Source of the DNA: Minisyncoccota bacterium
GTDB taxonomy: Bacteria; Patescibacteriota; Minisyncoccia; Phycocordibacterales; GCA-2401445
Reading direction: 5' to 3'
NCBI GenBank assembly: GCA_040879725.1
Contig: JBBDJV010000001.1
Coordinates: 1-45,439, forward strand
DNA: 45,439 bases
How positions within the stretch are numbered: position 1 is the stretch's first letter; each line of letters opens with the position of its first letter. The notes under the pieces were generated by a model. The model did not search any database. It was not told the origin of the DNA and saw only the letters and a program-made list of their open reading frames with translations. Shown here one piece after another: positions 2,349 through 40,254 of this stretch. The translations under genes and the position numbers were made by a program.

Positions 2349-3851
2349 TTACTTTGTTATTGTTGTGATTGCAACAAGTATATCACCGTTTGTAATTTCT
2401 ACTCGTGATTCAACCTGTAGCCCCAGCTCACCTTCCTGAATTGAAGAAACTTCAATCTTTTGTTGTTGTAGCCCAAGTATAACACCTGATCCTATTTCGT
2501 TTTCTCTTCGTATAACTTTTATCTTCTCACCTTTTTTCAAAATTCCATCAAGCATTTTACCTCCGATAACCTGCTTATCACGAACCTTACTGAAGCACAT
2601 GAGTACTTTCATTTTTCCGGTAATTTCCTCTATATGTTCAATCGGTTTTCGTTTTAGAACTTCTCCTTCGAGCCACTCGCGGAGGCGGTAAATAATATCA
2701 AAGGTTTGAATGGAAACCGCATCCCTGTCCGCGAGTTGTTGTGCTATGGAATCAATTCCAACATGAAAACCAACAATAGTCGTTCCTCCTTTTGAACCCG
2801 CGAGTTTTACGTCTGCTTCTCCAATAGAACCCACGCCACTTTGGATAATTTTAATCTTAACCTTATCGGTTGATATTTTCTGTATCTCATGTTCAATAGC
2901 TTCAATACTTCCTTGTACGTCAGCTTTAAGAATAAGCGGAAAAGTTACAACTCCTTCTTCTTGTGTTTCTATATCGAGAGGCGTTGCCTCTGTGTTGTTC
3001 TTTTTCTCTTCACGGGCTTTTTCAGCTTCTTTTTTCTTTTCAAAGACTGCAAACGTATCTCCGACAGATGGCGGTATGTCCCAGCCGGTAATTCTGATAG
3101 GACTAGAAAAGCTAGCCTCTTTGATAGATTTTCCAAGAAAGTTTTCCATAATACGTACCGGTGCGAGTGACAGACCAGCAAGGACAGCTTGTCCCTGTCG
3201 TATGGTTCCGTTTTTAACAACCAATGTTGCTGAGATTCCTTTTTGAGGGTCGCGGTTTGTTTCAATTACGACACCACTTGCGAGATCATTTGGGTTTCCG
3301 GTAAATCCTTCAAGGTCTGCAATAAGCAAGAGGGTAGAGAGAAGCTCGTCCATCCCTTTTCCAGTTACAGAAGAGATAGCTACGCTTGATATGGTTCCTC
3401 CGAGTCCTTCAACAAAAATATTATGTTCCATTAACTCACGACGAACCTTGTCAGGGTCGGCGTTTTGTTTGTCACACTTTGTTAGTGCGATCATGTAGGG
3501 AGTACCACTTTTCTGTATTGCTTCATACGCTTCAAGCGTTTGCGGTTTGACGCCTTCTTCAGCAGAAATAACCAGCACAACAATATCAGATGTCTGCGCT
3601 CCACGAGAACGCATAGCATGAAATGCTTCGTGTCCAGGCGTGTCGAGAAAAGTAATAGTTCGTTCTGTTCCTGATTCGTCTTTGTGGTGTACTTCGTACG
3701 CGGAAATATGTTGCGTGATTCCTCCCGCTTCACCCGCGACAACAGCTGATTTTCTTATGTAGTCGAGCAGGGAAGATTTACCATGGTCGATATGTCCCAT
3801 GATTGCAATAACCGGTGGTCGGGGTATGGAGTTGTTTGTTTGTTTTGTCAT
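2349..3851 (-). CDS. infB: translation initiation factor IF-2 (short form lacking long N-terminus)
   Basis: RPPVIAIMGHIDHGKSSLLD, GGITQHI, FLDTPGHEAF, ILKADVQGSIEA, FDIIY. Confidence 0.97.
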   Translation of the reverse strand: MTKQTNNSIPRPPVIAIMGHIDHGKSSLLDYIRKSAVVAGEAGGITQHISAYEVHHKDESGTERTITFLDTPGHEAFHAMRSRGAQTSDIVVLVISAEEGVKPQTLEAYEAIQKSGTPYMIALTKCDKQNADPDKVRRELMEHNIFVEGLGGTISSVAISSVTGKGMDELLSTLLLIADLEGFTGNPNDLASGVVIETNRDPQKGISATLVVKNGTIRQGQAVLAGLSLAPVRIMENFLGKSIKEASFSSPIRITGWDIPPSVGDTFAVFEKKKEAEKAREEKKNNTEATPLDIETQEEGVVTFPLILKADVQGSIEAIEHEIQKISTDKVKIKIIQSGVGSIGEADVKLAGSKGGTTIVGFHVGIDSIAQQLADRDAVSIQTFDIIYRLREWLEGEVLKRKPIEHIEEITGKMKVLMCFSKVRDKQVIGGKMLDGILKKGEKIKVIRRENEIGSGVILGLQQQKIEVSSIQEGELGLQVESRVEITNGDILVAITTITK

Positions 3852-3889
3852 ATGCGTTGTATCTGTTATTGAGCTTGGTCATGGTAGTA

Positions 3890-4366
3890 TTATTTTCCAA
3901 TCCCTAACTTTTCTTGAGCTTGTGTGAGTGCGTCTTTTTCTTCTGCGGAAAGCTCATGTACTGCTGAAAACTTTTTAATCGGTTTTGCAAAGACACTTAC
4001 ATGGTCTCTTCCGTAAAGGCTTGAAAGTACTACACCGTCACCGTTTTCATTTACAAATGCTGTCGCGAAGCTTTGGTTTCCTCCCGCACCACTTCCTTTG
4101 AAAGGATTAAAACGAATAGTTTCGTTTCCTTGGATGCATTTACGCAAACGAAGCTCAACTGTTTTTAAATACTCTTCTGCACCTTCCTTGAATTCAAGAT
4201 ATTCTTTAAGTTCGCTTCTGACATGGGCTAATGTATCGTCGAGGTTTTTTGAACCTCTTCCAAGGAGGAACTTTCTCAACTTCATTTCCATACGAATGTG
4301 GAATAAAGAGAGTATAAGGACTAATGCCAGGAGGATATATATGATAAGAGAGGAGTCAATAGTCAT
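3890..4366 (-). CDS. DUF4446-family membrane-anchored protein
   Basis: N-terminal TM helix; RFNPF...GGNQSFATA...NGDGVVLSSLYGRD...FAKPI...LSAEEKDAL. Confidence 0.75.
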   Translation of the reverse strand: MTIDSSLIIYILLALVLILSLFHIRMEMKLRKFLLGRGSKNLDDTLAHVRSELKEYLEFKEGAEEYLKTVELRLRKCIQGNETIRFNPFKGSGAGGNQSFATAFVNENGDGVVLSSLYGRDHVSVFAKPIKKFSAVHELSAEEKDALTQAQEKLGIGK

Positions 4367-4479
4367 ATAAAAGGCGCAAAATATGCGTAGTAGTGATTAT
4401 ACATGTTCGGGACGTGTTTGCAAAAGTGTGGTGTCGGTATTTGTTGCGGAAAAGGGAAAGGTGTGTTTCTATGGTGGGT

Positions 4480-5613
4480 ATGCAAAGACACTATTTTGAC
4501 TATGCTTCCACAACGCCGGTTTCGGATGCGGTGAAAGAAAAAATGAATACCGTGCCGTTTGGCAACCCCGGGAGCCTACACGAAGAGGGGCGTGTTGCAA
4601 GCGAGTTACTCCAGAGTGCAAGAAAGAAAGTTGCAAATGCACTAAAGGTCAAAGCTGGGGAGGTGGTGTTTACTCATGGAGGTACGGATGCGAACATGCG
4701 CGCATTACTTGGAGTTGTTAAGGCAAAAAAAGAAAAGGGTGTTTCGTATAGCGACATGGAGGTGGTGGTATCGCGGATAGAACATGCTTCAATTTTAAAT
4801 ACAGCAAAAGAGCTCCTGCGCCTCGGCGTCACAGTGCATTACGTTTCTAATAATGAAGAGGGAATAATAAGTCCATCAGAGCTTTGTTCGTATATTACAG
4901 AAAAAACAGTTCTCGTAAGTATCGGGTACGTAAATAATGAAATTGGAACTATTCAACCCGTGCGGGCAATCGCAACAAAAGCTAAAGAAAAAAATCCTCA
5001 CGTTCTCGTACACACGGACGCGTGTCAGTCTCCGCTGTATGTACCAGTCGCGCCACACGCACTTGGAGTTGATCTCCTTTCGCTTGATGCGCAAAAGATT
5101 TACGGACCAAAAGGAGTGGGGGTATTGTTCGTGAGACAAGATGTAGAACTTTCTCCGCTCGTAGATGGAACGCAAGAGCGAGGTATCGTACCTGGTACCG
5201 AAGCTCTTCCACTTATTGTTGGAATGAGTGAAGCTCTTTCGGACGCTGTTTTAAAACAAGAGGATGAAGCAAAACGAATTGCGGGTATACGAGACGAGCT
5301 CTTTGAATATATTGAAGATAAAATCCCTGGAGCGATACGTAATGGTAGTAAGGAGTCGAGAGTGGCGAATAATATAAACATATCGCTCCTTTCGGTTGAT
5401 ACTGAGTATTTAGTCATGCAACTCGATGCGCGAGGTTTTGCTATTTCAACCAAAAGCACCTGCGAACGAGATATGCCGTATTCTCACGTGGTAAAGGAAC
5501 TTGGTGGAGATGAAAAGAGAGCCTATCACACACTACGTATTTCACTTGGGCGTGACTCAGACTTGGAAAATGCCAAAAAACTTATAGATACTATTGTAGA
5601 GCTTACGACTTAG
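4480..5613 (+). CDS. iscS: cysteine desulfurase (IscS/NifS family)
   Basis: YFDYASTTP, FGNPGSLH, NNEIGTIQP, HTDACQ, AQKIYGPKGVG, STKSTC; start placed at ATG 4480. Confidence 0.9.
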   Translation: MQRHYFDYASTTPVSDAVKEKMNTVPFGNPGSLHEEGRVASELLQSARKKVANALKVKAGEVVFTHGGTDANMRALLGVVKAKKEKGVSYSDMEVVVSRIEHASILNTAKELLRLGVTVHYVSNNEEGIISPSELCSYITEKTVLVSIGYVNNEIGTIQPVRAIATKAKEKNPHVLVHTDACQSPLYVPVAPHALGVDLLSLDAQKIYGPKGVGVLFVRQDVELSPLVDGTQERGIVPGTEALPLIVGMSEALSDAVLKQEDEAKRIAGIRDELFEYIEDKIPGAIRNGSKESRVANNINISLLSVDTEYLVMQLDARGFAISTKSTCERDMPYSHVVKELGGDEKRAYHTLRISLGRDSDLENAKKLIDTIVELTT

Positions 5614-5651
5614 TCCTTGTACGAGAGCCTTCATTCCGTTATCATTCTAAT

Positions 5652-6485
5652 ATGGAAGAGCTCACCAAACATCAAGTTGTGTTACTTATGCTTCTCATAA
5701 GTTTCGTAACTTCAATTGCGACAGGCATTGTGACTGTTTCTTTAATGGACGAGCAGAACCCGGGAGTAACCCAGACAGTAAACCGTGTTGTCGAAAGAAC
5801 GATTGAGCGAGTTGTCGCAAGTGATGTTCCCGAAGAGTCGCAAGCTGCGCAAGTTGTAACAGAGGTACGGACGGTACTTTCAGAGCGAGAGTTTGTAAGT
5901 GATTTAGTGGAAAATATTAAGAAATCAGTTTTCGAGGTGTTTGACACAACAGAGGAGGAAGTAATAGGAAAAGCAGTTGTGGTAGATAGTAATAGGTTGG
6001 TGTTACCCCGATTTTCATTTGATCCTGAACACAGCTATGTTGTGATGCAGGGAGAAAATACACTAGCCGTTCGTTCCGCAACCACTACCGACAAGATAAC
6101 GATTTTAACCGTGGAAGGTAGTGTGCCGTACGTTCCTCTACGAGAGACCCTCAACCTTCCTTTGGGAACACGGCTCATAACGCTCGGAGGAAAAAATGGA
6201 GATGCAGTAGCACAGGGAATACTAACCAATACCTCTTACGCAGAAGATTCCGCCACGACAACGCCAGGTGAAGAACGTTCAGAAAAAAAGGTTATTTCAG
6301 TAAGCAGTACCGCAGGATATGATTCTTCTTACCTAGGCGCTCCACTTTTCACAGAGAAAGGGGAATTAATCGGACTCTATGAACAAAAAGGTGAATACGG
6401 CTATGCATATATACCTATTTCTCTAAAAAGTCTTATTCTCAGTACCACAGCAACATCGAGTGCTGACACTAAAAACCAAGAGTAG
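5652..6485 (+). CDS. membrane-anchored trypsin/HtrA-like fold protein (degenerate)
   Basis: N-terminal TM helix; C-terminal YLGAPLFTEKGELIG resembles NSGGPL..GEVIG but lacks the catalytic Ser. Confidence 0.6.
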   Translation: MEELTKHQVVLLMLLISFVTSIATGIVTVSLMDEQNPGVTQTVNRVVERTIERVVASDVPEESQAAQVVTEVRTVLSEREFVSDLVENIKKSVFEVFDTTEEEVIGKAVVVDSNRLVLPRFSFDPEHSYVVMQGENTLAVRSATTTDKITILTVEGSVPYVPLRETLNLPLGTRLITLGGKNGDAVAQGILTNTSYAEDSATTTPGEERSEKKVISVSSTAGYDSSYLGAPLFTEKGELIGLYEQKGEYGYAYIPISLKSLILSTTATSSADTKNQE

Positions 6486-6570
6486 AGCCATTTATTGACA
6501 TTTCTATATTTTGTCAGTATAATGATTACATCGTGTAAGTTAGTTTTTACACCAATATATAACAACATAT

Positions 6571-9264
6571 ATGCCACCATTTGATCACTTCACAGAAAAA
6601 TCTCAAGAAGCTATTAAGAAGGCCCATGAACTAGCTGTTGAGCGAGGACAAAACCACGTTAATCCCGTGCACCTTTTGACTGCGCTTATTCTGCAAGACG
6701 AAAGCATGGTAGCGTCTATTCTTGATAAGCTCGAAGTTGATACTGTGCTTCTTACCGACTCACTGCTTGAGTCAATCGAAGGTGTAGAAGGAGGATCAGT
6801 CGCGTCTCCGTCATACCAGATTTACCTTACTCCGGAGTTTGCCCAAACACTCGAACAAGCAGCGAAGCTTGCCAAGAAAATGGATGACCCGCGTGTATCA
6901 ACAGAACATCTTTTTCTCGCCGTCTTTGACGTACCGGGAACTGCTCGCGAGTTGCTCGCGCGTTTTCGAATTAAACGAGAAGAAGTGGAGCGTATTATAA
7001 TTGAGCTCCATGACAGCAATGTGACTGACGCAACACCATCAAAGAAGATGCGTTCTATTTCAAAATACACTCGAAGTCTGACACAGTTAGCAAAAGAAAA
7101 TAAACTCGATCCGGTTATTGGCCGAGATATGGAAATTACGCGTATTATTCAAATTCTTTCCCGGCGGACGAAAAATAATCCGATTCTAATCGGTGAGGCA
7201 GGTGTCGGAAAGACAGCGATTGCGGAAGGTCTCGCAAACAGAATTGCCAGTGGCGATGTGCCCGAGTCTTTGAAAGACAAAGATTTGGTGTCGCTTGACC
7301 TTGGGTTGCTTATTGCCGGTACAAAGTACCGAGGAGAGTTTGAAGAGCGTCTAAAGGCAATCATGAAGGAAATAGAGCGTTCTGACGGAAAGGTGATTCT
7401 CTTTATTGATGAGATTCATACTATTGTAGGCGCGGGAGCAGCAGAAGGAGCGATGGACGCATCAAACATGCTTAAACCGGCACTTTCTCGTGGAGAGCTT
7501 CGTGTGATAGGTGCAACCACTCTTAAGGAATACCAAAAACATATTGAAAAAGACCCTGCGCTGACACGGCGGTTCCAGCCGGTTCATGTAAACGAACCGT
7601 CACTAAATGATGCTGTTGCTATTTTGCGTGGGTTAAAAGAAAAGTATGAATTATTCCACGGAGTTCGAATTACGGATGACGCGATACTTGCGGCAGTACA
7701 TCTTTCAAGTAGATACATCACTGACAGATACCTTCCTGACAAGGCAGTTGACCTAATAGACGAAGCGGCTTCAGCACTTCGTATCTCTCTTGAGAACAAA
7801 CCGCCAGTACTGGAAGAAACACATCGAAAGATAATGCGTCTTGAGATTGAGAAAGAAGCACTCAAGAAAGAAGCAGCAAGTGAGACCGGTAAAAAAGCAA
7901 AAAGCAGAGTGCGCATAATTGATAAAGAAATTGCTGATCTGAGAGAAAAGACAAGCGAGATTGAGCTTAAGTGGAAGAATGAAAAAGAGGTTTTGATTTC
8001 AATCCGTACACTGAAAAAAGATTTAGAACAATTACGAATTGACGCTGATTCTGCTGAAGCAAGCGCTGACCTTACTCGTGCAGCTGAGATTCGATATGGA
8101 AAGATTCCAACACTTGAGAAAAATCTTGCGTCTGCTCAGACAAAACTCAAAAAGCTTCAGAGTTCTCGAAGAATTCTAAAAGAAGAGATTACAGAGTCTG
8201 ATATTGCAGACGTAGTATCACGCTGGAGCGGTGTGCCTGTATTTCGTATGCTTGAAGAAGAAGCAGAAAAGCTTGGTCGCATGGAAGAGGTTCTTAAAAA
8301 GCGAATCGTGGGACAGGATGATGCAATTCAGCGAGTAGCTGACGCGGTAAAGCGTTCACGAGCGGGCATTGCGGATCCGGAGCATCCTATTGGTTCATTT
8401 CTCTTCCTCGGTCCAACTGGTGTTGGTAAAACAGAACTCACTCGCGCGCTGGCTGAATTTATGTTTGACAGCGACAAAGCATTGGTACGAATTGATATGT
8501 CCGAGTACATGGAAAAGCATGCGGTTTCAAAAATGATTGGTTCTCCTCCGGGGTATGTAGGACACGAGGAAGGAGGGTCTTTGACTGAGCTGGTGCGACA
8601 TCGTCCATACTCTGTTCTTCTCTTTGACGAAATTGAAAAAGCACATCCTGAGGTGTTTAACATTCTTTTGCAGGTTCTCGATAATGGACGTCTTACAGAT
8701 GCGAAAGGCCGTGTAGCAAACTTCAAAAATACTATCATTATTTTGACATCAAATATTGGTGCTCAACATATTGATCAAATGGAGAAACTCGGATTTTCTA
8801 CTGGAAAGAGTGATGAAGAAAATGACCGTGATAAGTATGAGCTCGCAAAAGGGAAGGTGATGAAGTCTTTGAAACAGTTTTTCCGTCCGGAGTTCTTGAA
8901 TCGTCTTGATGAAATTGTTCTCTTTGACACACTGCCTCGTGAAGCGATAAAGAAGATTGTTCAAATACAGGTTGATATTGTTATAAAACGGCTTGCGGAA
9001 AAAGAGATTACTCTCGTCATTGAAGACAGTGTACTTGAATACCTCGCAAAGGAGGGGTACAACCCGCATTACGGAGCAAGACCGCTAAAGCGATTGATTC
9101 AAAGTAAAATCCTTACAAAGGTAGCGTCACTTATGATTTCCAAAGGGGTAACTCAGGGTGGACGTATTACTGTGGGGTATAAAAACAGTGAATTTGTTTT
9201 TGACGTGAAAGAAAAGAAGGTTCGAAAAAGTCAGAAGCAAATGGAGGAAGCCGGAGTTAACTAA
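6571..9264 (+). CDS. clpB: ATP-dependent chaperone ClpB
   Basis: Two Walker A motifs ([16 protein letters not shown]), long coiled-coil middle domain with [15 protein letters not shown]. Confidence 0.95.
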
Positions 9265-32006: not shown

Positions 32007-33074
32007 ATGACAAAGACGAGCACACAAGACCATATTGCATTTTATAGAAAATATCGACCAGCACACTTTGATGAAGTAATAGGACAAGAACACATCGTTT
32101 CTGTTTTAAAAGAATCAGTTGCACGTAAGTCAGTTGGGCATGCGTACTTGTTTGCTGGTTCACGAGGTACAGGGAAAACCAGTGTTGCTCGCATACTCGC
32201 CAAAGAGCTTTTGACCGACGCAAATGATATTTATGAAATAGACGCTGCTTCAAACCGTGGTATTGATGATGTTCGTGCACTTCGTGAGGCGGTAACATCG
32301 CTTCCTTTTTTCTCACAGTTTAAAGTCTATATTGTAGACGAGGTGCACATGCTTACTAAAGAAGCATTTAATGCACTGCTTAAAACTCTCGAAGAGCCTC
32401 CCAAACACGCAATTTTTATTCTTGCTACAACAGAGATAGATAAACTTCCGCAGACTGTTGTGTCACGGTGTCAGACCTTTACGTTTAAAAAACCCACCCG
32501 CTCTGAGCTAGTAGAGGTAGTAAAGTCAGTAGGGAAAAAAGAAGGGTATAGTGTGGAGGAGTCTGCAGCGGAGCTTATCGCAATCCTTGGAAACGGAGCA
32601 TTCAGAGATACGCATGGAGTACTTGAGCAGGTTGTGTCAGGAGTTTCAACGAAAACCATCACCGTTCTTGATGTAGAGCGAATTACCGGAGCTCCGAAGG
32701 GAGAGCTTGTGAATGATATTGTCGGCTCCATTGCAAATCGTGTGATTGAAAATGGTTTGAACGCAATACGAAAAGCAGGAAAACAAAATATCGATATGAC
32801 ACTCCTTACGAAGCTCGTAACAGAGAAAGTGCGCGCGGTTCTTCTGTTGCGTATAGCACCGAATATGCGAGAAGATATTCTGTCAGACTACACACCGGAA
32901 GATGGAAAATTTCTTTCAAATTTGGCAGAATCAGGAAAGGAAATAAACTCAAAAACGCTTCTTGCTTTGCTCGAGGTGCATGATTTTCTCGGAAAGGGAG
33001 ATGTTCCGGAATTACCACTAGAACTTGCACTCGTGAAGATTTTAGAGCAAAATGAGAAGCCAGAGAAGAAGTGA
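32007..33074 (+). CDS. dnaX: DNA polymerase III subunit gamma/tau
   Basis: YRKYRP, GSRGTGKTS, EIDAASNRGID, DEVHML, LLKTLEEPP, SRC. Confidence 0.96.
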   Translation: MTKTSTQDHIAFYRKYRPAHFDEVIGQEHIVSVLKESVARKSVGHAYLFAGSRGTGKTSVARILAKELLTDANDIYEIDAASNRGIDDVRALREAVTSLPFFSQFKVYIVDEVHMLTKEAFNALLKTLEEPPKHAIFILATTEIDKLPQTVVSRCQTFTFKKPTRSELVEVVKSVGKKEGYSVEESAAELIAILGNGAFRDTHGVLEQVVSGVSTKTITVLDVERITGAPKGELVNDIVGSIANRVIENGLNAIRKAGKQNIDMTLLTKLVTEKVRAVLLLRIAPNMREDILSDYTPEDGKFLSNLAESGKEINSKTLLALLEVHDFLGKGDVPELPLELALVKILEQNEKPEKK

Positions 33075-33156
33075 GTATAAATTAGTGTATAAAAGAAGAG
33101 TTGTGACCGAGTCCCTGACTCGAACACAATAGAAGTAAATGGTAGAATGCTGTCAT

Positions 33157-33227
33157 TGCCCGATCGTCTAATGGTAGGACGCTTGGTTTTGGTCCAAGTA
33201 ATTGGGGTTCGAGTCCCTGTCGGGCAG
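33157..33227 (+). tRNA. tRNA-Gln(TTG)
   Basis: TGCCCGATCGTCTAATGGTAGGACGCTTGGTTTTGGTCCAAG...GGTTCGAGTCCCTGTCGGGCAG; U1-A72, G73. Confidence 0.95.
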
Positions 33228-33464
33228 CATAAAAATAAAGAGCCGGATGTGATAACATTCGGCAATTTTATTTTTACCTGACCGCAGGGACGAGAAAGGC
33301 GGAGTCGGTACCTGCCTACCGGCAGGCAGGTACAAGACGAGCACTTCAGTGCGAGTGCTTGTCGGCGAGCCGGGGTCGAGAGTACTTTGTTTTTTTTATG
33401 ATCTTGAGCTTGTCGAAAGAGAAATAAAAAACTTAGTAACTCGTGACCGAGTCCCTGTCGGGCA
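33228..33464 (+). repeat. tRNA-Gln-associated structured module
   Basis: Degenerate antisense copy CTGACCGCAGGGACGAGAA, scaffold AGGCGGAGTC...ACTTAGTAACTCGTGACC, sense copy 33448-33464, palindrome 33311-33330. Confidence 0.8.
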
Positions 33465-33651
33465 AGCAGTTATGTGAGATAGATTTAGACGCCTAAATCA
33501 GTCATCTTTTTCAACATATTTTTTGGACGAGTTACGGACGCGAACCTTTTTAAGGGTGTCCTAGACGGGTTGAGAATTGATGCAATGTTCATATGGAGTA
33601 AATTCTAAGAAAAAATTAATGAGCTATATGGATTGAATTCAAGGCTGGGTC

Positions 33652-33680
33652 TTGTATTAAGCCAAAAATTGTGTTATAGT
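33652..33680 (+). promoter_or_regulatory. sigma70-like promoter for D,D-dipeptidase gene
   Basis: TTGTAT-17 bp-TATAGT with TG extension. Confidence 0.55.
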
Positions 33681-33752
33681 CGCACTGGAGAAAAAACCAT
33701 GGTGGGTTTCTCAAAACAATTCATTCACACTCTAAACTGAAAGAGGTGTATC

Positions 33753-34535
33753 ATGTTGGAATATCTCAAGATGCAGTATCTGCGGTATGTGACTCTGAGT
33801 GCCTATCGTTCGGGAGATTGGCGTACAATCGCTGTCCAGGATTGTGGGCAAAAATTAGTCCAGATTCCAGAAGATATGGCATTTCCATTTTATGCTCGGG
33901 TGATGCATCTAGTTTCAGATGAACGGATGCTTCTGAGAGAGGAAGTGCTTGAAAAAGTTTTTCTAGCGCGTGAATCAATCAAAAAAATCGGCCTTGATCT
34001 TGTGGTCTATGACGGCTGGCGATCGGTTGAGTTGCAAGAAAACCTCTTCTGGTTTTACATGAGGGCGTTTACGGCTGCCAGATTCAACAAAAAGGAGGAG
34101 TTCGAGAAACTCAAAGATTCCAGTGAAATCAAAGCTTTTTTCGAGAGTTTGTCGCCCGAAACACAATCGGTATTGCGAGAAGCGAATCGGACGTATGTAA
34201 GTTGGCCATCAAAAGACCCGAAAGCACCCAGTCCTCACGCTACAGGTGGAGCTGTTGATGTTTGGCTTATTCAAAATGGCAAAGAGGCAAATCTCGGTGT
34301 GCCCTTTGACTGGATGGAAGAGGAGGCAGGAGCTTTCTATCATCTGAAGCTTCGCAGGAAGCGTCTTGCTGGTAATGATCGGAAAGTGTCCAAGAATCGC
34401 ACAAAAATGATTCTAGCTATGGCAGACGTTGGTTTCAGTTGCTATGGTCCAGAGTTTTGGCACTTCAACTACGGCAACCAGATGGACGCTTTAGTTAAAG
34501 GGGGTGCTGCCAAATACTCATATATCGAGCCATAA
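33753..34535 (+). CDS. VanX/DdpX-like D-alanyl-D-alanine dipeptidase (M15D)
   Basis: YDGWRS, SPHATGGAVD (SxHxxGxAxD), EFWHF zinc/catalytic motifs; no signal peptide. Confidence 0.88.
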   Translation: MLEYLKMQYLRYVTLSAYRSGDWRTIAVQDCGQKLVQIPEDMAFPFYARVMHLVSDERMLLREEVLEKVFLARESIKKIGLDLVVYDGWRSVELQENLFWFYMRAFTAARFNKKEEFEKLKDSSEIKAFFESLSPETQSVLREANRTYVSWPSKDPKAPSPHATGGAVDVWLIQNGKEANLGVPFDWMEEEAGAFYHLKLRRKRLAGNDRKVSKNRTKMILAMADVGFSCYGPEFWHFNYGNQMDALVKGGAAKYSYIEP

Positions 34536-34555
34536 CGTTGGCTTAAAGACAAAAT

Positions 34556-34589
34556 AAGAGGCGGACACAAATTTGTGTTCGCCTTTTTC
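34556..34589 (+). terminator. intrinsic terminator
   Basis: AGGCGGACAC-AAATTT-GTGTTCGCCT-TTTT. Confidence 0.7.
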
Positions 34590-34645
34590 TTTAGGTATAT
34601 ATTTTGAAATAGTCAATCAATCCGTAATCTGCTAAAATGAAGTGA

Positions 34646-35746
34646 ATGAATAATTCCAAAAGAATCAATGTTGCCCTATTATGTGGTGGAAAGTCAGGAG
34701 AACATGAAGTTTCCCTTTTGTCAGCACGCAATGTGTACGATTCACTAGATAAGACTAAATATAATGTAGTAATTGTCGGCATAGACAAAATGGGGCGATG
34801 GTTCCCTATATCGGAGAACTCTCTCATTGAAAAAAGTGGGGGTATGAATGAAATTGCTTCTGATAAAGGTGTTACTTCTGTTTCTATTATTCCATCAAGT
34901 GCCGATCTTCAATTCTCGGATATGGGGAATGGGCATACCCCATTCGATGTTGTTATCCCTATTCTTCATGGACCCTACGGTGAAGACGGTTCGGTACAAG
35001 GGTTACTAAAATTGGCCAATATTCCATATGTCGGTGCGGGTGTGCTGGGTAGCGCTGTTGGAATGGATAAAGATGTAATGAAACGACTATTACGCGATGC
35101 AGGCTTGCCAATTGGTAAATTTGTGACGTTATACAAACACAGAAAATCTCTCTCCTATGTACGAATTACAAAGAAATTAGGTTCGCCAATTTTTATTAAA
35201 CCTGCTAATCTAGGATCTTCTGTTGGTGTGTCACGTGTAGATACAAAAAAGGAGTACGAGAAGGCTGTAGCAGAAGCTTTTAAGTATGACACTAAGATAA
35301 TTATAGAGGAATATATAGATGGTAGAGAAATAGAGTGTGCAATACTTGGAAATGAGGAGCCTGTGGCATCAATTCCGGGAGAAATTGCTACGAACAAATC
35401 GCATCATGCTTTCTACTCATATGAAGCAAAATATTTAGATGAGCAAGGTGCAGACTTGATTATTCCCGCTTCGCTAACAAAAAAACAAACGCGAGCCGTG
35501 CAAGATTTGGCGGTTAAAGTATTTACCACATTGTGTTGTGAGGGTATGGCAAGAGTTGATTTTTTCTTCAGAGAAAATAGTACATTTGTCGTTAATGAAA
35601 TAAATACCATTCCGGGCTTTACCTCAATGAGCATGTATCCAAAACTATGGGAAGCAAGTGGAATTTCAAATGAAAAATTAATTGACACCCTGATTCAGTT
35701 GGCCATTAAAAGATTTAAGGTGGAACAAAAACTGGTAACAAAGTAA
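34646..35746 (+). CDS. ddl: D-alanine--D-alanine ligase (DdlA type)
   Basis: GGKSGEHEVS, LHGPYGEDG, KPANLGSSVG, FYSYEAKY, NEINTIPGFT. Confidence 0.93.
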   Translation: MNNSKRINVALLCGGKSGEHEVSLLSARNVYDSLDKTKYNVVIVGIDKMGRWFPISENSLIEKSGGMNEIASDKGVTSVSIIPSSADLQFSDMGNGHTPFDVVIPILHGPYGEDGSVQGLLKLANIPYVGAGVLGSAVGMDKDVMKRLLRDAGLPIGKFVTLYKHRKSLSYVRITKKLGSPIFIKPANLGSSVGVSRVDTKKEYEKAVAEAFKYDTKIIIEEYIDGREIECAILGNEEPVASIPGEIATNKSHHAFYSYEAKYLDEQGADLIIPASLTKKQTRAVQDLAVKVFTTLCCEGMARVDFFFRENSTFVVNEINTIPGFTSMSMYPKLWEASGISNEKLIDTLIQLAIKRFKVEQKLVTK

Positions 35747-35748
35747 CT

Positions 35749-37011
35749 ATGAATCCTCATGAAGATAATTTCTATAATCTGCTAAAACTGGTAGATAAAC
35801 ACGATGCATGGATGGATGAGACAATTAATTTGATTGCAAGTGAAAATAGGATAAGTCCTTCAATCAATAAGGTATTATCTTCCGACTTTGGAAACCGAGT
35901 TGCTGAAGGTTGGATTGGTAAACGTGTCTTTCCGGGTATCAAATACTACGATGAAATAGAACAGTATGGTATGGAATTAGTACGGATTATGTTCCGAGCT
36001 GATTTTGCAGATATTCGTCCCATTGGTGGTACGATGGCAAACATGATTGTTTACAGTGCGTTTACAAAACCGGGTGATACTATTGTATCTTTAAGTATAT
36101 CGTCAGGTGCTCATATTAGTATGTCGGGTGCTGTGCCGCGTAAAGTATTTGGGTTGAATGTAGTAGAGTTGCTGTTTAACCAAACAAGTCTCTCTATTAA
36201 ATTAGAGGAATCTATAAAAATTATCGAGGAAACCAAACCTAAGATACTAGTCTTGGGTGGTTCTGTTATATTATTCCCTCAGCCAGTTAAAGAACTGACT
36301 GAGGTTTGTAAAAGAGTCGGTACGATTGTGTTGTTTGATGCAGCACATGTTGCCGGTCTCATTGCTGCCGGGGAATATCCTAACCCATTTGATGATGGGG
36401 TTGATATTATGACAATGACCGTATGTAAAACCATACCTGGACCACAACATGCGTTTATCCTTTCTCGTGATGCATTCTCGGAATCAATTAAACGAACCAC
36501 TTTCCCTGGATTTCTGTCTGGACATCATTTACATGAGACGGTTGCGAGTGTGCTTGTAATGGAGGAAATGAAAAAATTTGGTAAGGATTATGCAAAACAA
36601 GTTTTGATAAATGCAAAGACATTAGCACAGTCTTTGTCTGAGTATGGATTCAATGTGTTGGCTAAAGATAAAGGTTTTACTGAAACGCATATGTTTCTTT
36701 TGGATGTGTCAGACATTATTCTAGCTACCGAAGCGGAACAGATGCTGGAGAAGGTGAACATTATCGTCAATAGAAACATGTTGCCTATAGACACTTCTTT
36801 CCAAAACCCAAGTGGATTGAGGGTTGGTACACCTGAAATGACAAAAATAGGAATGAAAGAAAGCGATATGAAGCAAATCGCGAGCTTCTTTAAACGCATC
36901 CTGATTGATAAAGAAAACGTACAGCAAGTCAAGAAAGATGTGATTTCTTTTAGAAAAGCATTCAATCAAGTGCATTTTTGTTTTGACGAAGCCGAAAAAA
37001 ATAAAATTTAA
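35749..37011 (+). CDS. SHMT-like PLP-dependent enzyme (divergent)
   Basis: NLIASEN, GAHIS, DAAHVAGL, TVCKTIPGPQ, NRNMLP, SGLRVGT. Confidence 0.85.
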   Translation: MNPHEDNFYNLLKLVDKHDAWMDETINLIASENRISPSINKVLSSDFGNRVAEGWIGKRVFPGIKYYDEIEQYGMELVRIMFRADFADIRPIGGTMANMIVYSAFTKPGDTIVSLSISSGAHISMSGAVPRKVFGLNVVELLFNQTSLSIKLEESIKIIEETKPKILVLGGSVILFPQPVKELTEVCKRVGTIVLFDAAHVAGLIAAGEYPNPFDDGVDIMTMTVCKTIPGPQHAFILSRDAFSESIKRTTFPGFLSGHHLHETVASVLVMEEMKKFGKDYAKQVLINAKTLAQSLSEYGFNVLAKDKGFTETHMFLLDVSDIILATEAEQMLEKVNIIVNRNMLPIDTSFQNPSGLRVGTPEMTKIGMKESDMKQIASFFKRILIDKENVQQVKKDVISFRKAFNQVHFCFDEAEKNKI

Positions 37012-37013
37012 GA

Positions 37014-37727
37014 ATGGAAAAATACAAAGACACTTTTTTTGTTGATAAATATGTCGCATTATGGGCATATGGTTACCGAAACGGTATTGGTGTGTCTGAA
37101 GGGCTTTATCGAACTATAAATGATCTTGGTTTCGGCTATTTTAATCAGTATGAAAAGTATAAAATTCTTGACATAGGTTGTGGTGTTGGAAGAACAGCTT
37201 CAGATTATGCTCGATTTTTCAAGAATTCAGAAGTAACTGGTATTGATCCAGCATCTCTTATGATCGACATGGCGAAAAAGATTAACGGAACCGATCAAAC
37301 AATAAGTATTGATATGAGGCGAGTTGGGTTGGGAGTGATGGATATCCAGTGCTATCAAGTAAAAAATCTTTGTTTTGAGGAAGTAGATTTGCTTGGTTTC
37401 AGTCAAAGAATGCCCCTCGAAACTTTTGACTTGGTTACTGCGGTGAATGTGATAGACAGAGCTGAAGATGTGAATATGCTATTTTCAATAGTATTTAAGA
37501 TACTTAGACCAGCAGGTGTTTTTATTTTATCCACTCCTTTAAATTTTTCAGAAGATCAACAGTGGACAGATTTTAATTCAATGGAGTCTCTCGTGCAATT
37601 AGCAGAAAAAGCTGGCTTCGCTGTTGATATACAATTTGATCAGCTGATGTACAAGGAACTTCTTGACGCACGAGGAGCAACCGAAGAATATCCGACTGTT
37701 GTTATGCGTATAATAAAGAAAATATAA
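37014..37727 (+). CDS. class I SAM-dependent methyltransferase
   Basis: ILDIGCGVG, GID, FDLV.AVNVIDR, LRPAG. Confidence 0.88.
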   Translation: MEKYKDTFFVDKYVALWAYGYRNGIGVSEGLYRTINDLGFGYFNQYEKYKILDIGCGVGRTASDYARFFKNSEVTGIDPASLMIDMAKKINGTDQTISIDMRRVGLGVMDIQCYQVKNLCFEEVDLLGFSQRMPLETFDLVTAVNVIDRAEDVNMLFSIVFKILRPAGVFILSTPLNFSEDQQWTDFNSMESLVQLAEKAGFAVDIQFDQLMYKELLDARGATEEYPTVVMRIIKKI

Positions 37728-37728
37728 A

Positions 37729-38778
37729 ATGAAACAAAAAATTCTGATAATTACGGGTGGTTTATCTAACGAAAGAAGACTCTCTTTGATTAGTGGTGAA
37801 GATGTAACTCGTGCTTTAATGGAAGAAAATACGGAAATTGCTATTTCAGTTTTGGTGATAGTCGATAACATGAAAATGTCCCTGTATTCTGATCCGCAAT
37901 TATTTTTAGATAGAGAGAGTCAGGGTACTGATCTTGAGAAAGTACGCAGGTACGATAGCCTGGATTTATCTGTTCTAAAAGCAGACGGTTATGATGTCGC
38001 TTTTTTGGCACTTGATGGAACATTCGCAGAAGATGGACACATACAGGCTCTATTAAATTTGACCGGAATCCCATATACAGGTTCGGACGTGATGTCGAGT
38101 AGTATTGGTATGAATAAATCAAAATGCTACGAATTTGTTTCAAATCAGGGAGTAGACGTTCCTGAATATTTTCTTGTTCGTACTAACAATTATGACGTAG
38201 ATGAAATTGATACAGTGATAAAAAATACATTTGGATATCCATGTATCGTAAAGCCAAATGATTCAGGATCGAGTATCGGTATGAGTTCTCCAAACAAAAA
38301 GGATGAACTGGAAGATTCTCTAAAAGAGTCATTTAAACATAGCAATATTACAATTGTGCAAAAATTTATACGAGGAAGAGAATTTGCTTGTGGAATAATT
38401 GGGAATGTTGGAGATACTGAATTGGAGATTTTGCCGGTAGCTGAAAGCATAATGGAAAATTTTACAGCGTACACCCATGAGCAAAAGTATTACTCCACTG
38501 ATATTAAAGATGTTTGTCCGGCGAAGATTGACGATTCCCTAAAGGAGCTGATTATGGAAAAAACTAAAAAAGTCCATGAAATCCTTGATTGTGACGGCTT
38601 AACGAGAAGTGATTTTAGATATGATGAAGAAAGTGGAAAACTCTATTTTCTTGAGATTAACACACTGCCTGGTCATACAAAAAATAGCATTTGCCCACAA
38701 GAAGCATACGCTATTGGTATGACGTTTGGAGGTTTGATCTTGAAACAAATTGATTTAGCTATACTAAGAAAAAAGTAA
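37729..38778 (+). CDS. Ddl-like ATP-grasp ligase with altered specificity residues
   Basis: GGLSNER, LDGTFAEDG, KPNDSGSSIG, AYTHEQKY, RSDF, LEINTLPG. Confidence 0.85.
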   Translation: MKQKILIITGGLSNERRLSLISGEDVTRALMEENTEIAISVLVIVDNMKMSLYSDPQLFLDRESQGTDLEKVRRYDSLDLSVLKADGYDVAFLALDGTFAEDGHIQALLNLTGIPYTGSDVMSSSIGMNKSKCYEFVSNQGVDVPEYFLVRTNNYDVDEIDTVIKNTFGYPCIVKPNDSGSSIGMSSPNKKDELEDSLKESFKHSNITIVQKFIRGREFACGIIGNVGDTELEILPVAESIMENFTAYTHEQKYYSTDIKDVCPAKIDDSLKELIMEKTKKVHEILDCDGLTRSDFRYDEESGKLYFLEINTLPGHTKNSICPQEAYAIGMTFGGLILKQIDLAILRKK

Positions 38779-38919
38779 ATATCTTGCGAAAAAGATCAAT
38801 AAACAAGCCGTATTATTTAGACCAGTCATGGGCGACCGAGACGGTTCTAACTCGAGACACACAGCATAAAATAGTTAGCCCCCATGCGAAAGCATTGGGG
38901 TTTTTGATATAATGAGGGC

Positions 38920-39333
38920 ATGAAAACAATTCTCTTTGCCTGCACTGAAAATAAAAAGCGGAGCATAATGGCTGAGGCTATTTTTAATCATCTAGCGAAG
39001 GAGAGTGACTTGTCTGCTCGAGCGACTAGTGCTGGCACTATCCCTGCTGAAGAAGCTGACCCACAGGTTGTAGATATCTTGAGTAAACACCATATCGAGT
39101 ACACGAAACATAAACCTCAAAAACTCACTAATGAAATGCTTGAAGAAGTAGACCATATTGTTTCTTTTGGATGTTTGATTCCTGATATGTTTCCTAAGAG
39201 CAAGTTTGAGGAATGGTTAGTAGAAGATCCGCAAACACTTGAAGAATATGAAGGTGTTTTTCATATTATCCAACAGCATGTGGTGGCGTTGCTCGAGCGT
39301 CTATCTAAAAAAAGTAACTCTCTATCTGAGTAG
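38920..39333 (+). CDS. low-molecular-weight phosphatase/arsenate reductase family protein
   Basis: ILFACTENKKRSIMAEA (Cx5R), SAGT, W.VEDP. Confidence 0.85.
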   Translation: MKTILFACTENKKRSIMAEAIFNHLAKESDLSARATSAGTIPAEEADPQVVDILSKHHIEYTKHKPQKLTNEMLEEVDHIVSFGCLIPDMFPKSKFEEWLVEDPQTLEEYEGVFHIIQQHVVALLERLSKKSNSLSE

Positions 39334-39609
39334 CTATGAGTGAAGAGCGATATACTTTTATACATCTTTCAAGGGCGACCGAGAGGGATTTGAGTCGCAG
39401 AAAGGTAGTCAACTAACGAGAGTGACCGAGTTCCTGTCGGGCAGAATTATGTAACTTCTACCTAAGTCTTTAACTTAGCCATATTATTCAGCATTTTGGA
39501 TTCATACTCGAACCGTATTTATAGTCACTACTGTGTCTATTGTGACGAATAAACATACGTGGTATAGATAGTATACTAGTCGATTGTATTATTATAACAA
39601 ACACATTTT

Positions 39610-40254
39610 ATGAAATATTTCTATTATTTTACAGCTATTGTCTTTGCGGTTGCGGGAGTATTAACCGCGACGACGCCTATGAGCGCGGAAGCTCGCTCAA
39701 TTGATAATCCTCCTGAAGAAAAAGAGCGAGGAGTTCGAGCGCTTGAGGCGGTAAGAGATACTCCTAACGGTGATAAGGTTATGCGTATTCTTAAAAAGAA
39801 ACTTCCAAGTGTAGCAGGTGGAGATGACGACGGAGATGGTCACGCTGACCCGGAATTTCGTGAGGATGAAAGCTCTCCTGAATCAGCGGTAAAGAAACCA
39901 AATGCCAAACATGACTGGAAGGTTGAAGAAGGTGAAAGGGCGGTTGAGGCTCAGGATTATAACGCGGCTCGTTCAAACAAACCTACATCTAAATCACCTG
40001 TTGATGCCGATGGGGATGATGGAAACGACGATATACTGGAAAGAATGAACAAAGCTGAACTTGTCGACGCGATTGCAAGTGATGCAAAGATCTCAAAAGC
40101 CGATGCAAAAAAAGCGCTTGAAGGTTTTACTAACGCAACAACGCAAATCTTGGAAAAAGGAGATCGTATTTCATTGATTGGATTTGGTTCATTCAGTATC
40201 AGCAAACGAGCCACTGAAGAAGTGGACATTCTTGGTATGCAAGAAGAGAAATAA
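39610..40254 (+). CDS. secreted protein with C-terminal truncated HU domain
   Basis: Signal peptide; MNKAELVDAIASDAKISKADAKKAL...GDRISLIGFGSFS from 40045. Confidence 0.75.
   Translation: MKYFYYFTAIVFAVAGVLTATTPMSAEARSIDNPPEEKERGVRALEAVRDTPNGDKVMRILKKKLPSVAGGDDDGDGHADPEFREDESSPESAVKKPNAKHDWKVEEGERAVEAQDYNAARSNKPTSKSPVDADGDDGNDDILERMNKAELVDAIASDAKISKADAKKALEGFTNATTQILEKGDRISLIGFGSFSISKRATEEVDILGMQEEK

Follow-up and report, generated by a model that had tools for sequence, protein, structure and literature searches.

Positions 1–45,439 of contig JBBDJV010000001.1 from a Minisyncoccota bacterium (assembly GCA_040879725.1; this stretch is hereafter the window) carry a five-gene cassette encoding, in order, a VanX-like M15 dipeptidase homologue, a D-Ala-D-Ala ligase (Ddl1), a pyridoxal-phosphate (PLP) enzyme with the fold of serine hydroxymethyltransferase (SHMT), an S-adenosylmethionine (SAM) methyltransferase and a second Ddl-family ligase (Ddl2). 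Here, we show using gene-neighbourhood comparison, family-model scans, residue mapping, phylogeny and structure models that this cassette is a conserved unit that is rare, patchy in its distribution and mobile, and that it consists of an M15–Ddl core to which a three-gene add-on has been joined. The cassette probably makes an unusual dipeptide that contains D-alanine. We tentatively favour the reading that the add-on makes a modified amino acid and ligates it to D-alanine, to which we give a little less than an even chance.

How firmly do these genes belong together? In the window, the five open reading frames (ORFs) lie on the plus strand with gaps of 110, 2, 2 and 1 nt between successive genes, and the gene count, domain content and tight spacing given in an earlier note on this DNA are borne out by the ORFs and by Pfam and NCBIfam scans. 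Related loci were collected by back-translating the conserved N-terminal motif of the methyltransferase and scanning metagenome contigs with it, and their neighbours were scored by tblastn with six window proteins. This gave 14 loci, which amount to about ten distinct versions since near-identical copies recur across samples (L092, L093 and L105; L095, L096 and L102). The SHMT-like gene lies immediately 5' of the methyltransferase in all 14, and a Ddl lies immediately 5' of the SHMT-like gene in 10/10 loci that reach that far, nine of these ligases being of the Ddl1 type (56–82% identity) and one divergent (L103). An M15 gene stands upstream of Ddl1 in every Ddl1-type locus that extends that far (8/8), or in 8/9 when L103 is counted, where no M15 was found within 2.3 kb upstream. 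A Ddl-family ligase follows 3' of the methyltransferase in 11/14 loci. The three loci that lack it (L095, L096 and L102) have a methyltransferase that matches residues 3–87 only and an M15 gene in two frames, and from their sequence they look like a single decaying version of the cassette. Ddl1 and the SHMT-like gene are intact in all three, despite the damaged M15 gene, the methyltransferase of ~90 residues and the missing fifth gene.

The flanks differ in every locus examined; one copy has MreB and PriA on one side and YbeY, FtsA and FtsZ on the other, and in another GroEL is a neighbour together with an M48 peptidase. The copy in L104 is directly preceded by genes for two histidine kinases and for two response regulators that consist of a receiver only (2639–6001). 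In L094, rve-type transposase genes stand on both sides (101–1267 and 6229–7053) and Ddl2 breaks off near residue 269, a setting that looks, from its gene content, like a composite transposon. A gene order that is kept while its surroundings change identifies the set as a real functional unit, and the five-gene set on which the earlier note built its proposal is indeed conserved elsewhere.

The cassette is nevertheless rarely met. The methyltransferase family is limited to 36 proteins (E ≤ 1e-3) in a set of 5.8 billion clusters; it was found in 0/40 relatives, which gave only weak matches with E of at least 1.6e-8, and in 0/400 genomes drawn evenly from the phylum (E ≤ 1e-20). A scan of genome contigs with the methyltransferase alignment was dominated by the generic SAM motif, the best among the matches listed being 27–30% identical and having no Ddl or SHMT neighbours. 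A plasmid search returned canonical glyA only (32–34% identity) and no methyltransferase match, and 68 genomes of the Flavobacteriales, the order of the genome that holds locus L012 (G439), gave no match. Named homologues belong to Candidatus Vogelbacteria, Levybacteria, Moranbacteria, Azambacteria, Parcubacteria, Andersenbacteria and Nomurabacteria, and we regard the source genome as one of the Candidate Phyla Radiation (CPR)/Patescibacteria. We found no published description of this gene set; the per-genome lists of van-like genes behind a survey of CPR genomes, a source available to us in part (PMC8651080), might include such loci.

The core of the cassette is formed by the peptidase and Ddl1. 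By its scores, the M15 protein seems to be a member of the family and not an equivalog of VanX or DdpX (NCBIfam 28.9 vs a cut-off of 320 and 45.8 vs 176, respectively). A pairwise alignment to VanX (1r44) finds equivalents of R71, H116, D123, D142, E181 and H184, among which we take His116, Asp123 and His184 to be the Zn ligands and Glu181 to be catalytic, and its own R90, H162, D169, D186, E234 and H237 are invariant in 39/39 homologues. The AlphaFold2 model (predicted local distance difference test, pLDDT, 93.2) matches VanX 1r44 best among the folds in the PDB (E 3.5e-8), followed by VanY, VanXY and LdcB, and on reading the sequence no N-terminal signal-like segment was seen.

The M15 subfamily holds 178 proteins at E ≤ 1e-5 and occurs in two of the 400 other phylum genomes sampled, G235 and G414 (57–59% identity). 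In both genomes, the same kind of peptidase is followed ~80–90 nt later by a Ddl that keeps all canonical determinants, as in the cassette; unlike in the cassette, no SHMT-like gene, methyltransferase or second ligase lies nearby. The M15-linked Ddl is the only intact Ddl of G414 (100% complete) and the sole Ddl of G235 (78% complete). Since the M15–Ddl pair thus stands alone in other CPR genomes, once as the only intact Ddl, the pairing is a core typical of the lineage and not a resistance cassette, which changes the van-like reading of the earlier note. The one further Ddl-domain match above the cut-off in G414 (G414:C17:378493-378663) covers 56 aa and is broken by TGA and TAG stops; the ancestral ddl of this genome seems to have decayed once the M15-linked ddl arrived.

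What do the two ligases of the cassette join? Residues were mapped in E. coli DdlB numbering using the printed Ddl2–DdlB alignment and a MAFFT alignment. Ddl1, whose nearest PDB match is Salmonella DdlA (3q1k, 367 bits), keeps 12/12 determinants (E15, H63, S150, Y210, K215, Y216, R255, D257, E270, N272, G276 and S281), the full set is kept by Ddl1 in 7/7 cassette copies, and by every determinant checked Ddl1 appears to be a canonical D-Ala-D-Ala ligase. Ddl2 keeps 11 of the 12, with His63 replaced by Asp (in 4/5 Ddl2-type copies), and it also has Ile in place of Leu282. Four loci carry an alternative ligase as gene 5, ~25% identical, with Asp15, Tyr63, Ala150, Gln210 and Phe216. These residues were read from the aligned ligases of L092 and L097, to which the copy in L093 and L105 is 89% identical. 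The first ligase of L103 has Gln63 and Phe216, and the downstream sixth gene of L104 (11231–12064) encodes a third Ddl-family ligase with Lys-Phe at 215–216, as judged by reading the translation and not from an alignment. Judging from these residues, each cassette seems to hold one ordinary ligase, with the others varying at substrate-site positions.

These residues bear directly on whether we are looking at a classical glycopeptide-resistance cassette of the van type that makes D-Ala-D-Lac or D-Ala-D-Ser, which we regard as very improbable. The vanHAX and vanC/vanT/vanXY operons are likewise mobile and likewise combine a cytoplasmic VanX-type dipeptidase with a Ddl-family ligase and, possibly in our case, a substrate-supply enzyme, and in the cassette a VanX-like peptidase adjoins the ligases. 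Van-like genes have moreover been reported from CPR genomes, with matches in 48 of 4,062 genomes whose synteny was unchecked in the available part of that survey (PMC8651080). In contrast to those operons, the cassette has an SHMT-fold PLP enzyme and an N-methyltransferase as its supply enzymes and a canonical Ddl as its first ligase, its peptidase is separately transcribed, and it contains no dehydrogenase, racemase or VanRS: as the earlier note had stated, Pfam and NCBIfam detect no VanH, VanT or VanRS in any ORF between 30.8 and 41.3 kb. All NCBIfam van-ligase models stay far under their cut-offs (e.g. VanG 320 vs 495 for Ddl1). According to the part of PMC7691350 available to us, Ser150 together with Tyr216 marks Ddls that make only D-Ala-D-Ala, and Tyr216Phe with Ser150Ala, as in the Leuconostoc LmDdl2-type D-Ala-D-Lac ligases, gave DdlB weak D-Ala-D-Lac activity. 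The alternative gene-5 ligases share Ser150Ala and Tyr216Phe with the LmDdl2 type, which is a point for a van-type cassette in those loci, but they also have Glu15 changed to Asp and His63 to Tyr, and both ligases of the window keep Ser150 and Tyr216. With no VanH, VanT or VanRS and with Ddl-type ligase determinants, this is not a van operon, and the altered D-Ala-D-X ligase that the earlier note had expected is not seen: Ddl1 is canonical, and Ddl2 carries no mark of a D-Ala-D-Lac or D-Ala-D-Ser ligase.

The add-on is set apart above all by its PLP enzyme, whose best solved relative is the SHMT of Methanocaldococcus jannaschii (4UQV/4BHD; 349 bits to 4UQV). It resembles this enzyme and GlyA in fold, length, PLP Lys, Asp, Arg and Glu57, and it differs from them in Val55, Phe65 and Cys228, in two loops of archaeal SHMTs that are shortened and in its constant linkage to a methyltransferase and a Ddl. 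We aligned 126 sequences and built a tree from them (the PLP enzyme itself, the 120 best database matches less five shorter than 380 aa, which leaves 115, and 10 canonical GlyA proteins of relatives). The PLP enzyme falls in a clade of 45 (support 1.0) that is sister to 70 archaeal-type SHMTs. In this clade, position 55 is Val in 45/45 members, position 65 is Phe in 40 and Tyr in 5, and position 228 is Cys in 44 and Ser in 1, whereas Tyr, Tyr and His occupy these positions in every one of the 81 remaining aligned SHMTs. The numbering is that of E. coli SHMT, in which we take Tyr55, Tyr65 and His228 to be active-site residues, and was transferred through the canonical sequences in the alignment; the window protein has V51, F61 and C226, with the PLP Lys at 227. 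Clade members from CPR genomes are 60–91% identical to it, and a group at 50–54% includes Myroides odoratus (P0065) and Myroides sp.

No other SHMT-family gene was found in the source genome (G000). This one scores 229 Pfam bits, whereas canonical GlyA proteins score 478–557 bits in the 26/39 relatives with an intact match. The low Pfam score, the separate clade and the replacement of Tyr55, Tyr65 and His228 uphold the view that this is no ordinary SHMT, and the protein appears from these signatures to represent a re-tooled, archaeal-derived and distinct SHMT-fold subfamily. It may transfer hydroxymethyl groups to an amino acid that is not glycine, carry out aldol chemistry without a pterin or act as a racemase, and SHMT-like alpha-methylserine synthases and threonine transaldolases provide functional precedents. 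A role as D-alanine source, for which Chlamydia GlyA is a precedent, was set aside since G000 has an alanine racemase.

By its modelled fold, the methyltransferase seems closest to N-methyltransferases of small molecules, and especially to those acting on the imidazole of histidine. Its AlphaFold2 model was built from 25 homologues (pLDDT 93.0). In Foldseek searches of the PDB, it matches the OvoA methyltransferase domain, human CARNMT1, OvoM and OvsM best (8khq, 5yf0/1/2, 9bxl and 9bxj; template modelling (TM) score 0.75–0.78, identity 16–22%), vs a TM of about 0.55 for generic class I methyltransferases. When PDB sequences are searched with a profile, these enzymes again come first (E about 4e-12), ahead of phosphoethanolamine N-methyltransferases. 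Among the family models, DREV is exceeded (28.8 vs 26 bits), whereas CARME (24.3 vs 27) and the OvoA C-terminal model (48.6 vs 170) are not. Could the cassette then encode a pathway like that of carnosine and anserine, in which a Ddl-type ligase makes a histidine dipeptide, the methyltransferase methylates the imidazole and the M15 protein turns the dipeptide over? Carnosine synthase is itself an ATP-grasp enzyme, the best fold and profile matches are all histidine N-methyltransferases, and the DREV score points the same way. However, identity to CARNMT1, the OvoA C-terminal domain, OvoM and OvsM is only 16–22%. Both ligases, moreover, are true Ddl-family enzymes that keep the residues of the D-Ala carboxylate site, and the SHMT-like enzyme would be left without a role. 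We therefore hold such a pathway to be improbable.

The arrangement we favour would work as follows. A small island inserted beside tRNA-Gln would have brought in the conserved, horizontally moving cassette, with the cytoplasmic VanX-like Zn dipeptidase and the normal D-Ala-D-Ala ligase Ddl1 as its core pair. The add-on, which lies in the operon of Ddl1, would contribute the altered SHMT-fold enzyme, a small-molecule N-methyltransferase and a second ligase whose substrate subsite is altered. Together, the PLP enzyme and the methyltransferase may turn glycine, serine or D-alanine into an amino acid that is C1-modified (C1, one-carbon) or N-methylated, which Ddl2 would couple to D-alanine, while Ddl1 would maintain normal D-Ala-D-Ala and the dipeptidase would set the balance of dipeptides. 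The alternative dipeptide would most likely feed the end of the peptidoglycan stem peptide and thus edit the D-Ala terminus. The more specific proposal that an N-methylated or hydroxymethylated residue from these two enzymes is placed at the D-Ala-D-Ala terminus of wall precursors, by a module that moves among ultra-small episymbionts, we consider unlikely. The earlier note had likewise suggested a modified-amino-acid pathway ligating into a D-Ala-D-X terminus or a dipeptide; the non-ordinary PLP enzyme, the methyltransferase and the conserved unit speak for it, and the missing D-Ala-D-Lac or D-Ala-D-Ser ligase mark speaks against it.

Several points weigh against this favoured arrangement. 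What the analysis shows is gene content, conservation, mobility, residue signatures and folds; the substrates, the product and its destination are our inference. A canonical Ddl beside a dipeptidase for D-Ala-D-Ala would seem to set up a futile cycle, unless regulation keeps them apart or the peptidase prefers another dipeptide, and the cassette contains no MurF variant, transporter or regulator. By retaining Ser150 and Tyr216, Ddl2 in the window bears the marks of a ligase that makes D-Ala-D-Ala only. Its one deviating determinant is at His63, a residue that presumably lines the first D-Ala site. All enzymes to which the methyltransferase is related in fold methylate the imidazole of histidine, and the arrangement leaves this unexplained. 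In addition, the PLP enzyme keeps Glu57, Asp200, PLP Lys229 and Arg363 (E53, D197, K227 and R358 in the window) and the Asn of what we take to be the folate-binding NxN motif, and it passes the NCBIfam SHMT subfamily cut-off (409.5 vs 335), so that real SHMT activity is possible. The source genome has ThyA (contig C15) and Fmt (contig C7), and canonical GlyA, FolD and ThyX were not found in its 22-contig assembly, from which a glyA–folD region may be missing; this would fit a PLP enzyme that does ordinary C1 work.

Some of these points lead to a plainer explanation, namely that ordinary genes travel together: a working SHMT that feeds thymidylate synthase, redundant Ddls and a methyltransferase with an unrelated job. 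Beyond the cut-off and the residues kept, it can draw on the PLP enzyme being the sole SHMT-family gene found next to a ThyA and an Fmt. Yet the SHMT-like gene adjoins the methyltransferase in 14/14 loci, with spacers of 1–2 nt in the window, and across its clade the enzyme has lost Tyr55, Tyr65 and His228, which 81/81 other SHMTs keep. The apparent lack of GlyA and FolD may itself be a matter of assembly: each of the four relatives examined (G001–G003 and G006) has glyA and folD close together on one contig, and the counterpart of the glyA–folD region of G001 is absent from the 22-contig assembly of G000. Either the assembly misses these genes or the PLP enzyme of the cassette still supplies C1 units. 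Overall, we think it unlikely that the cassette is an assembly of ordinary genes.

A different destination for the product deserves somewhat more weight, although we also judge it doubtful. The add-on may make a free di- or tripeptide containing D-alanine that serves as a metabolite or as an antimetabolite, such as a mimic of D-Ala-D-Ala directed at the host or at competitors, with Ddl1 as an extra or insensitive target and the M15 protein serving immunity or processing. An extra target copy within the cluster is a known pattern of self-resistance, and each cassette combines two to three Ddl-family ligases with amino-acid tailoring enzymes. Mobile ddl cassettes give D-cycloserine resistance on their own, as described in the available part of a study of the Treponema integron cassettes ddl6 and ddl7 (PMC7691350). 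These resemble the present cassette in being mobile, extra and canonical Ddl genes and differ from it in being, as far as that part of the source goes, single genes without partner enzymes (PMC7691350). Against a free peptide stands the lack of an exporter, regulator or carrier in the cassette and its variable flanks. Ddl1 has no substitution at any determinant checked, and the M15–Ddl pair can be the only intact Ddl of a genome and thus serves primary wall synthesis.

In the window, the cassette sits in a block whose features are collected in the table. The tRNA-Gln (anticodon TTG) is the likely integration site of the island. Of the island edges proposed by the earlier note, which had spoken of an island bounded by tRNA-Gln, one genuine tRNA-Gln is present and a second tRNA gene is not; the cassette lies instead between two 22-nt copies of the tRNA 3' end, the distal of which is the probable far edge. 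A 20-nt motif from this 3' end has three matches, vs none expected from 100 shuffles; another, weak copy (82%) lies upstream of the tRNA at 33103–33124. Between the two att-like repeats there are the five cassette genes and a low-molecular-weight phosphatase/ArsC-like gene, and neither an integrase nor a second tRNA gene was found there. The phosphatase/ArsC-like gene has no tblastn match in the 14 related loci (0/14) and rides on the island outside the conserved cassette; a 42-nt direct repeat (71% identical) occurs on both sides of it (38813–38854 and 39356–39397). Rfam finds no riboswitch or other RNA family besides the tRNA over 32900–39800, and the stretch between the tRNA and the first att-like repeat (33280–33390) is non-coding, G+C-rich and hairpin-prone, without an Rfam match.

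Features of the cassette and its surroundings, with positions in the window
Feature	Position	Strand	Details
tRNA-Gln (anticodon TTG)	33157..33228	+	ARAGORN; Rfam tRNA 56.8 bits
att-like direct repeat of tRNA-Gln 3' end, proximal	33443..33464	+	22 nt
VanX-type M15 Zn D,D-dipeptidase homologue, predicted cytoplasmic	33753..34535	+	260 aa; PF01427 47.7 bits vs cut-off 27
Terminator-like hairpin, 14-bp stem then U-run	34551..34592	+	after M15 gene; fold -28.6 kcal/mol, z = -4.1
Promoter-like site TAGTCA-17-TAAAAT with TG	34610..34638	+	ahead of Ddl1; consensus match only
Ddl1, long (DdlA-type) D-Ala-D-Ala ligase	34646..35746	+	366 aa; NF002528 460.8 bits vs cut-off 262; Ddl N+C domains
SHMT-fold PLP enzyme	35749..37011	+	420 aa; PF00464 229 bits; NF000586 409.5 vs cut-off 335
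Class I SAM methyltransferase, carnosine/ovothiol N-methyltransferase structural type	37014..37727	+	237 aa
Ddl2, Ddl-family ligase	37729..38778	+	349 aa; NF002378 259.4 bits vs cut-off 243; Ddl N+C domains
Terminator-like hairpin + U-run	38877..38908	+	RNA fold; closes four-gene operon after Ddl2; stem also listed for the opposite strand
Low-molecular-weight phosphatase/ArsC-like gene	38920..39333	+	PF01451 73.5 bits
att-like direct repeat of tRNA-Gln 3' end, distal	39422..39443	+	22 nt; 95% identical to 33443 copy

Read from its signals, the layout would be the M15 gene, a terminator, a promoter, the operon from Ddl1 through the SHMT-like gene and the methyltransferase to Ddl2, and a second terminator. 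Because a hairpin with a U-run and a promoter-like site separate the M15 gene from Ddl1, the M15 gene forms its own transcription unit; a VanX-like gene does stand ahead of four tightly packed genes, as had been noted before, but it is not part of their operon. The operon from Ddl1 to Ddl2 has a G+C content of 37.2%, vs 41.6% for the genome, and only 2.9% of 798 genome windows of 4 kb are as low; the M15 gene has 45.6%. The neighbours of the cassette that were scanned encode DnaX, the phosphatase/ArsC-like protein, and HU-like and PAS proteins. The ORF at 39610–40254 encodes a 214-aa protein with an HU/IHF DNA-binding domain at its C-terminus only (residues 146–202) and a long N-terminal extension. 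The order of dnaX followed by tRNA-Gln is kept in the relatives G001 and G003, and the sequence farther downstream differs. In G003, unrelated genes follow; the contig of the same-genus genome G001 stops within the tRNA-Gln and is thus uninformative on an empty site.

The source genome comprises 873,751 bases in 22 contigs, and at 874 kb it is reduced, in line with the minimal biosynthesis of the lineage that the earlier note mentions. An alanine racemase (Alr) is present elsewhere in this genome, as is a third Ddl on contig 5, with 330 aa and an open-frame length equal to that of the single Ddl of its congener G001. The presence of Alr and of this relative-like Ddl makes the cassette surplus to the basic supply of D-Ala-D-Ala. 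On the same contig (C5, locus L004; 1075–2067 and 2136–3506), an ORF that we named UvrC-like from reading its sequence precedes the third Ddl, and past the Ddl there are a probable tRNA and, on the opposite strand, a large ORF resembling a serine recombinase; the gene content of this locus suggests another integration hot spot.

In conclusion, the cassette defines an uncharacterised SHMT-fold subfamily of archaeal origin with a rebuilt active site and fixed gene partners, and it indicates that CPR bacteria, poor in biosynthesis as they are, trade a compact module around D-Ala-D-Ala metabolism. As it comprises five small soluble enzymes, the question of what it makes is directly testable. Were a free dipeptide the product, the cassette would represent a peptide pathway of minimal size built on ATP-grasp enzymes. 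Entry of the product into the wall would mean that stem peptides are edited in a new way, which is relevant to susceptibility to glycopeptides and D-cycloserine and to the wall chemistry between host and symbiont, and should the modified residue indeed stand at the terminus, it would provide a third chemical route, beside D-lactate and D-serine, to alter the target of glycopeptides and of wall-cutting enzymes.

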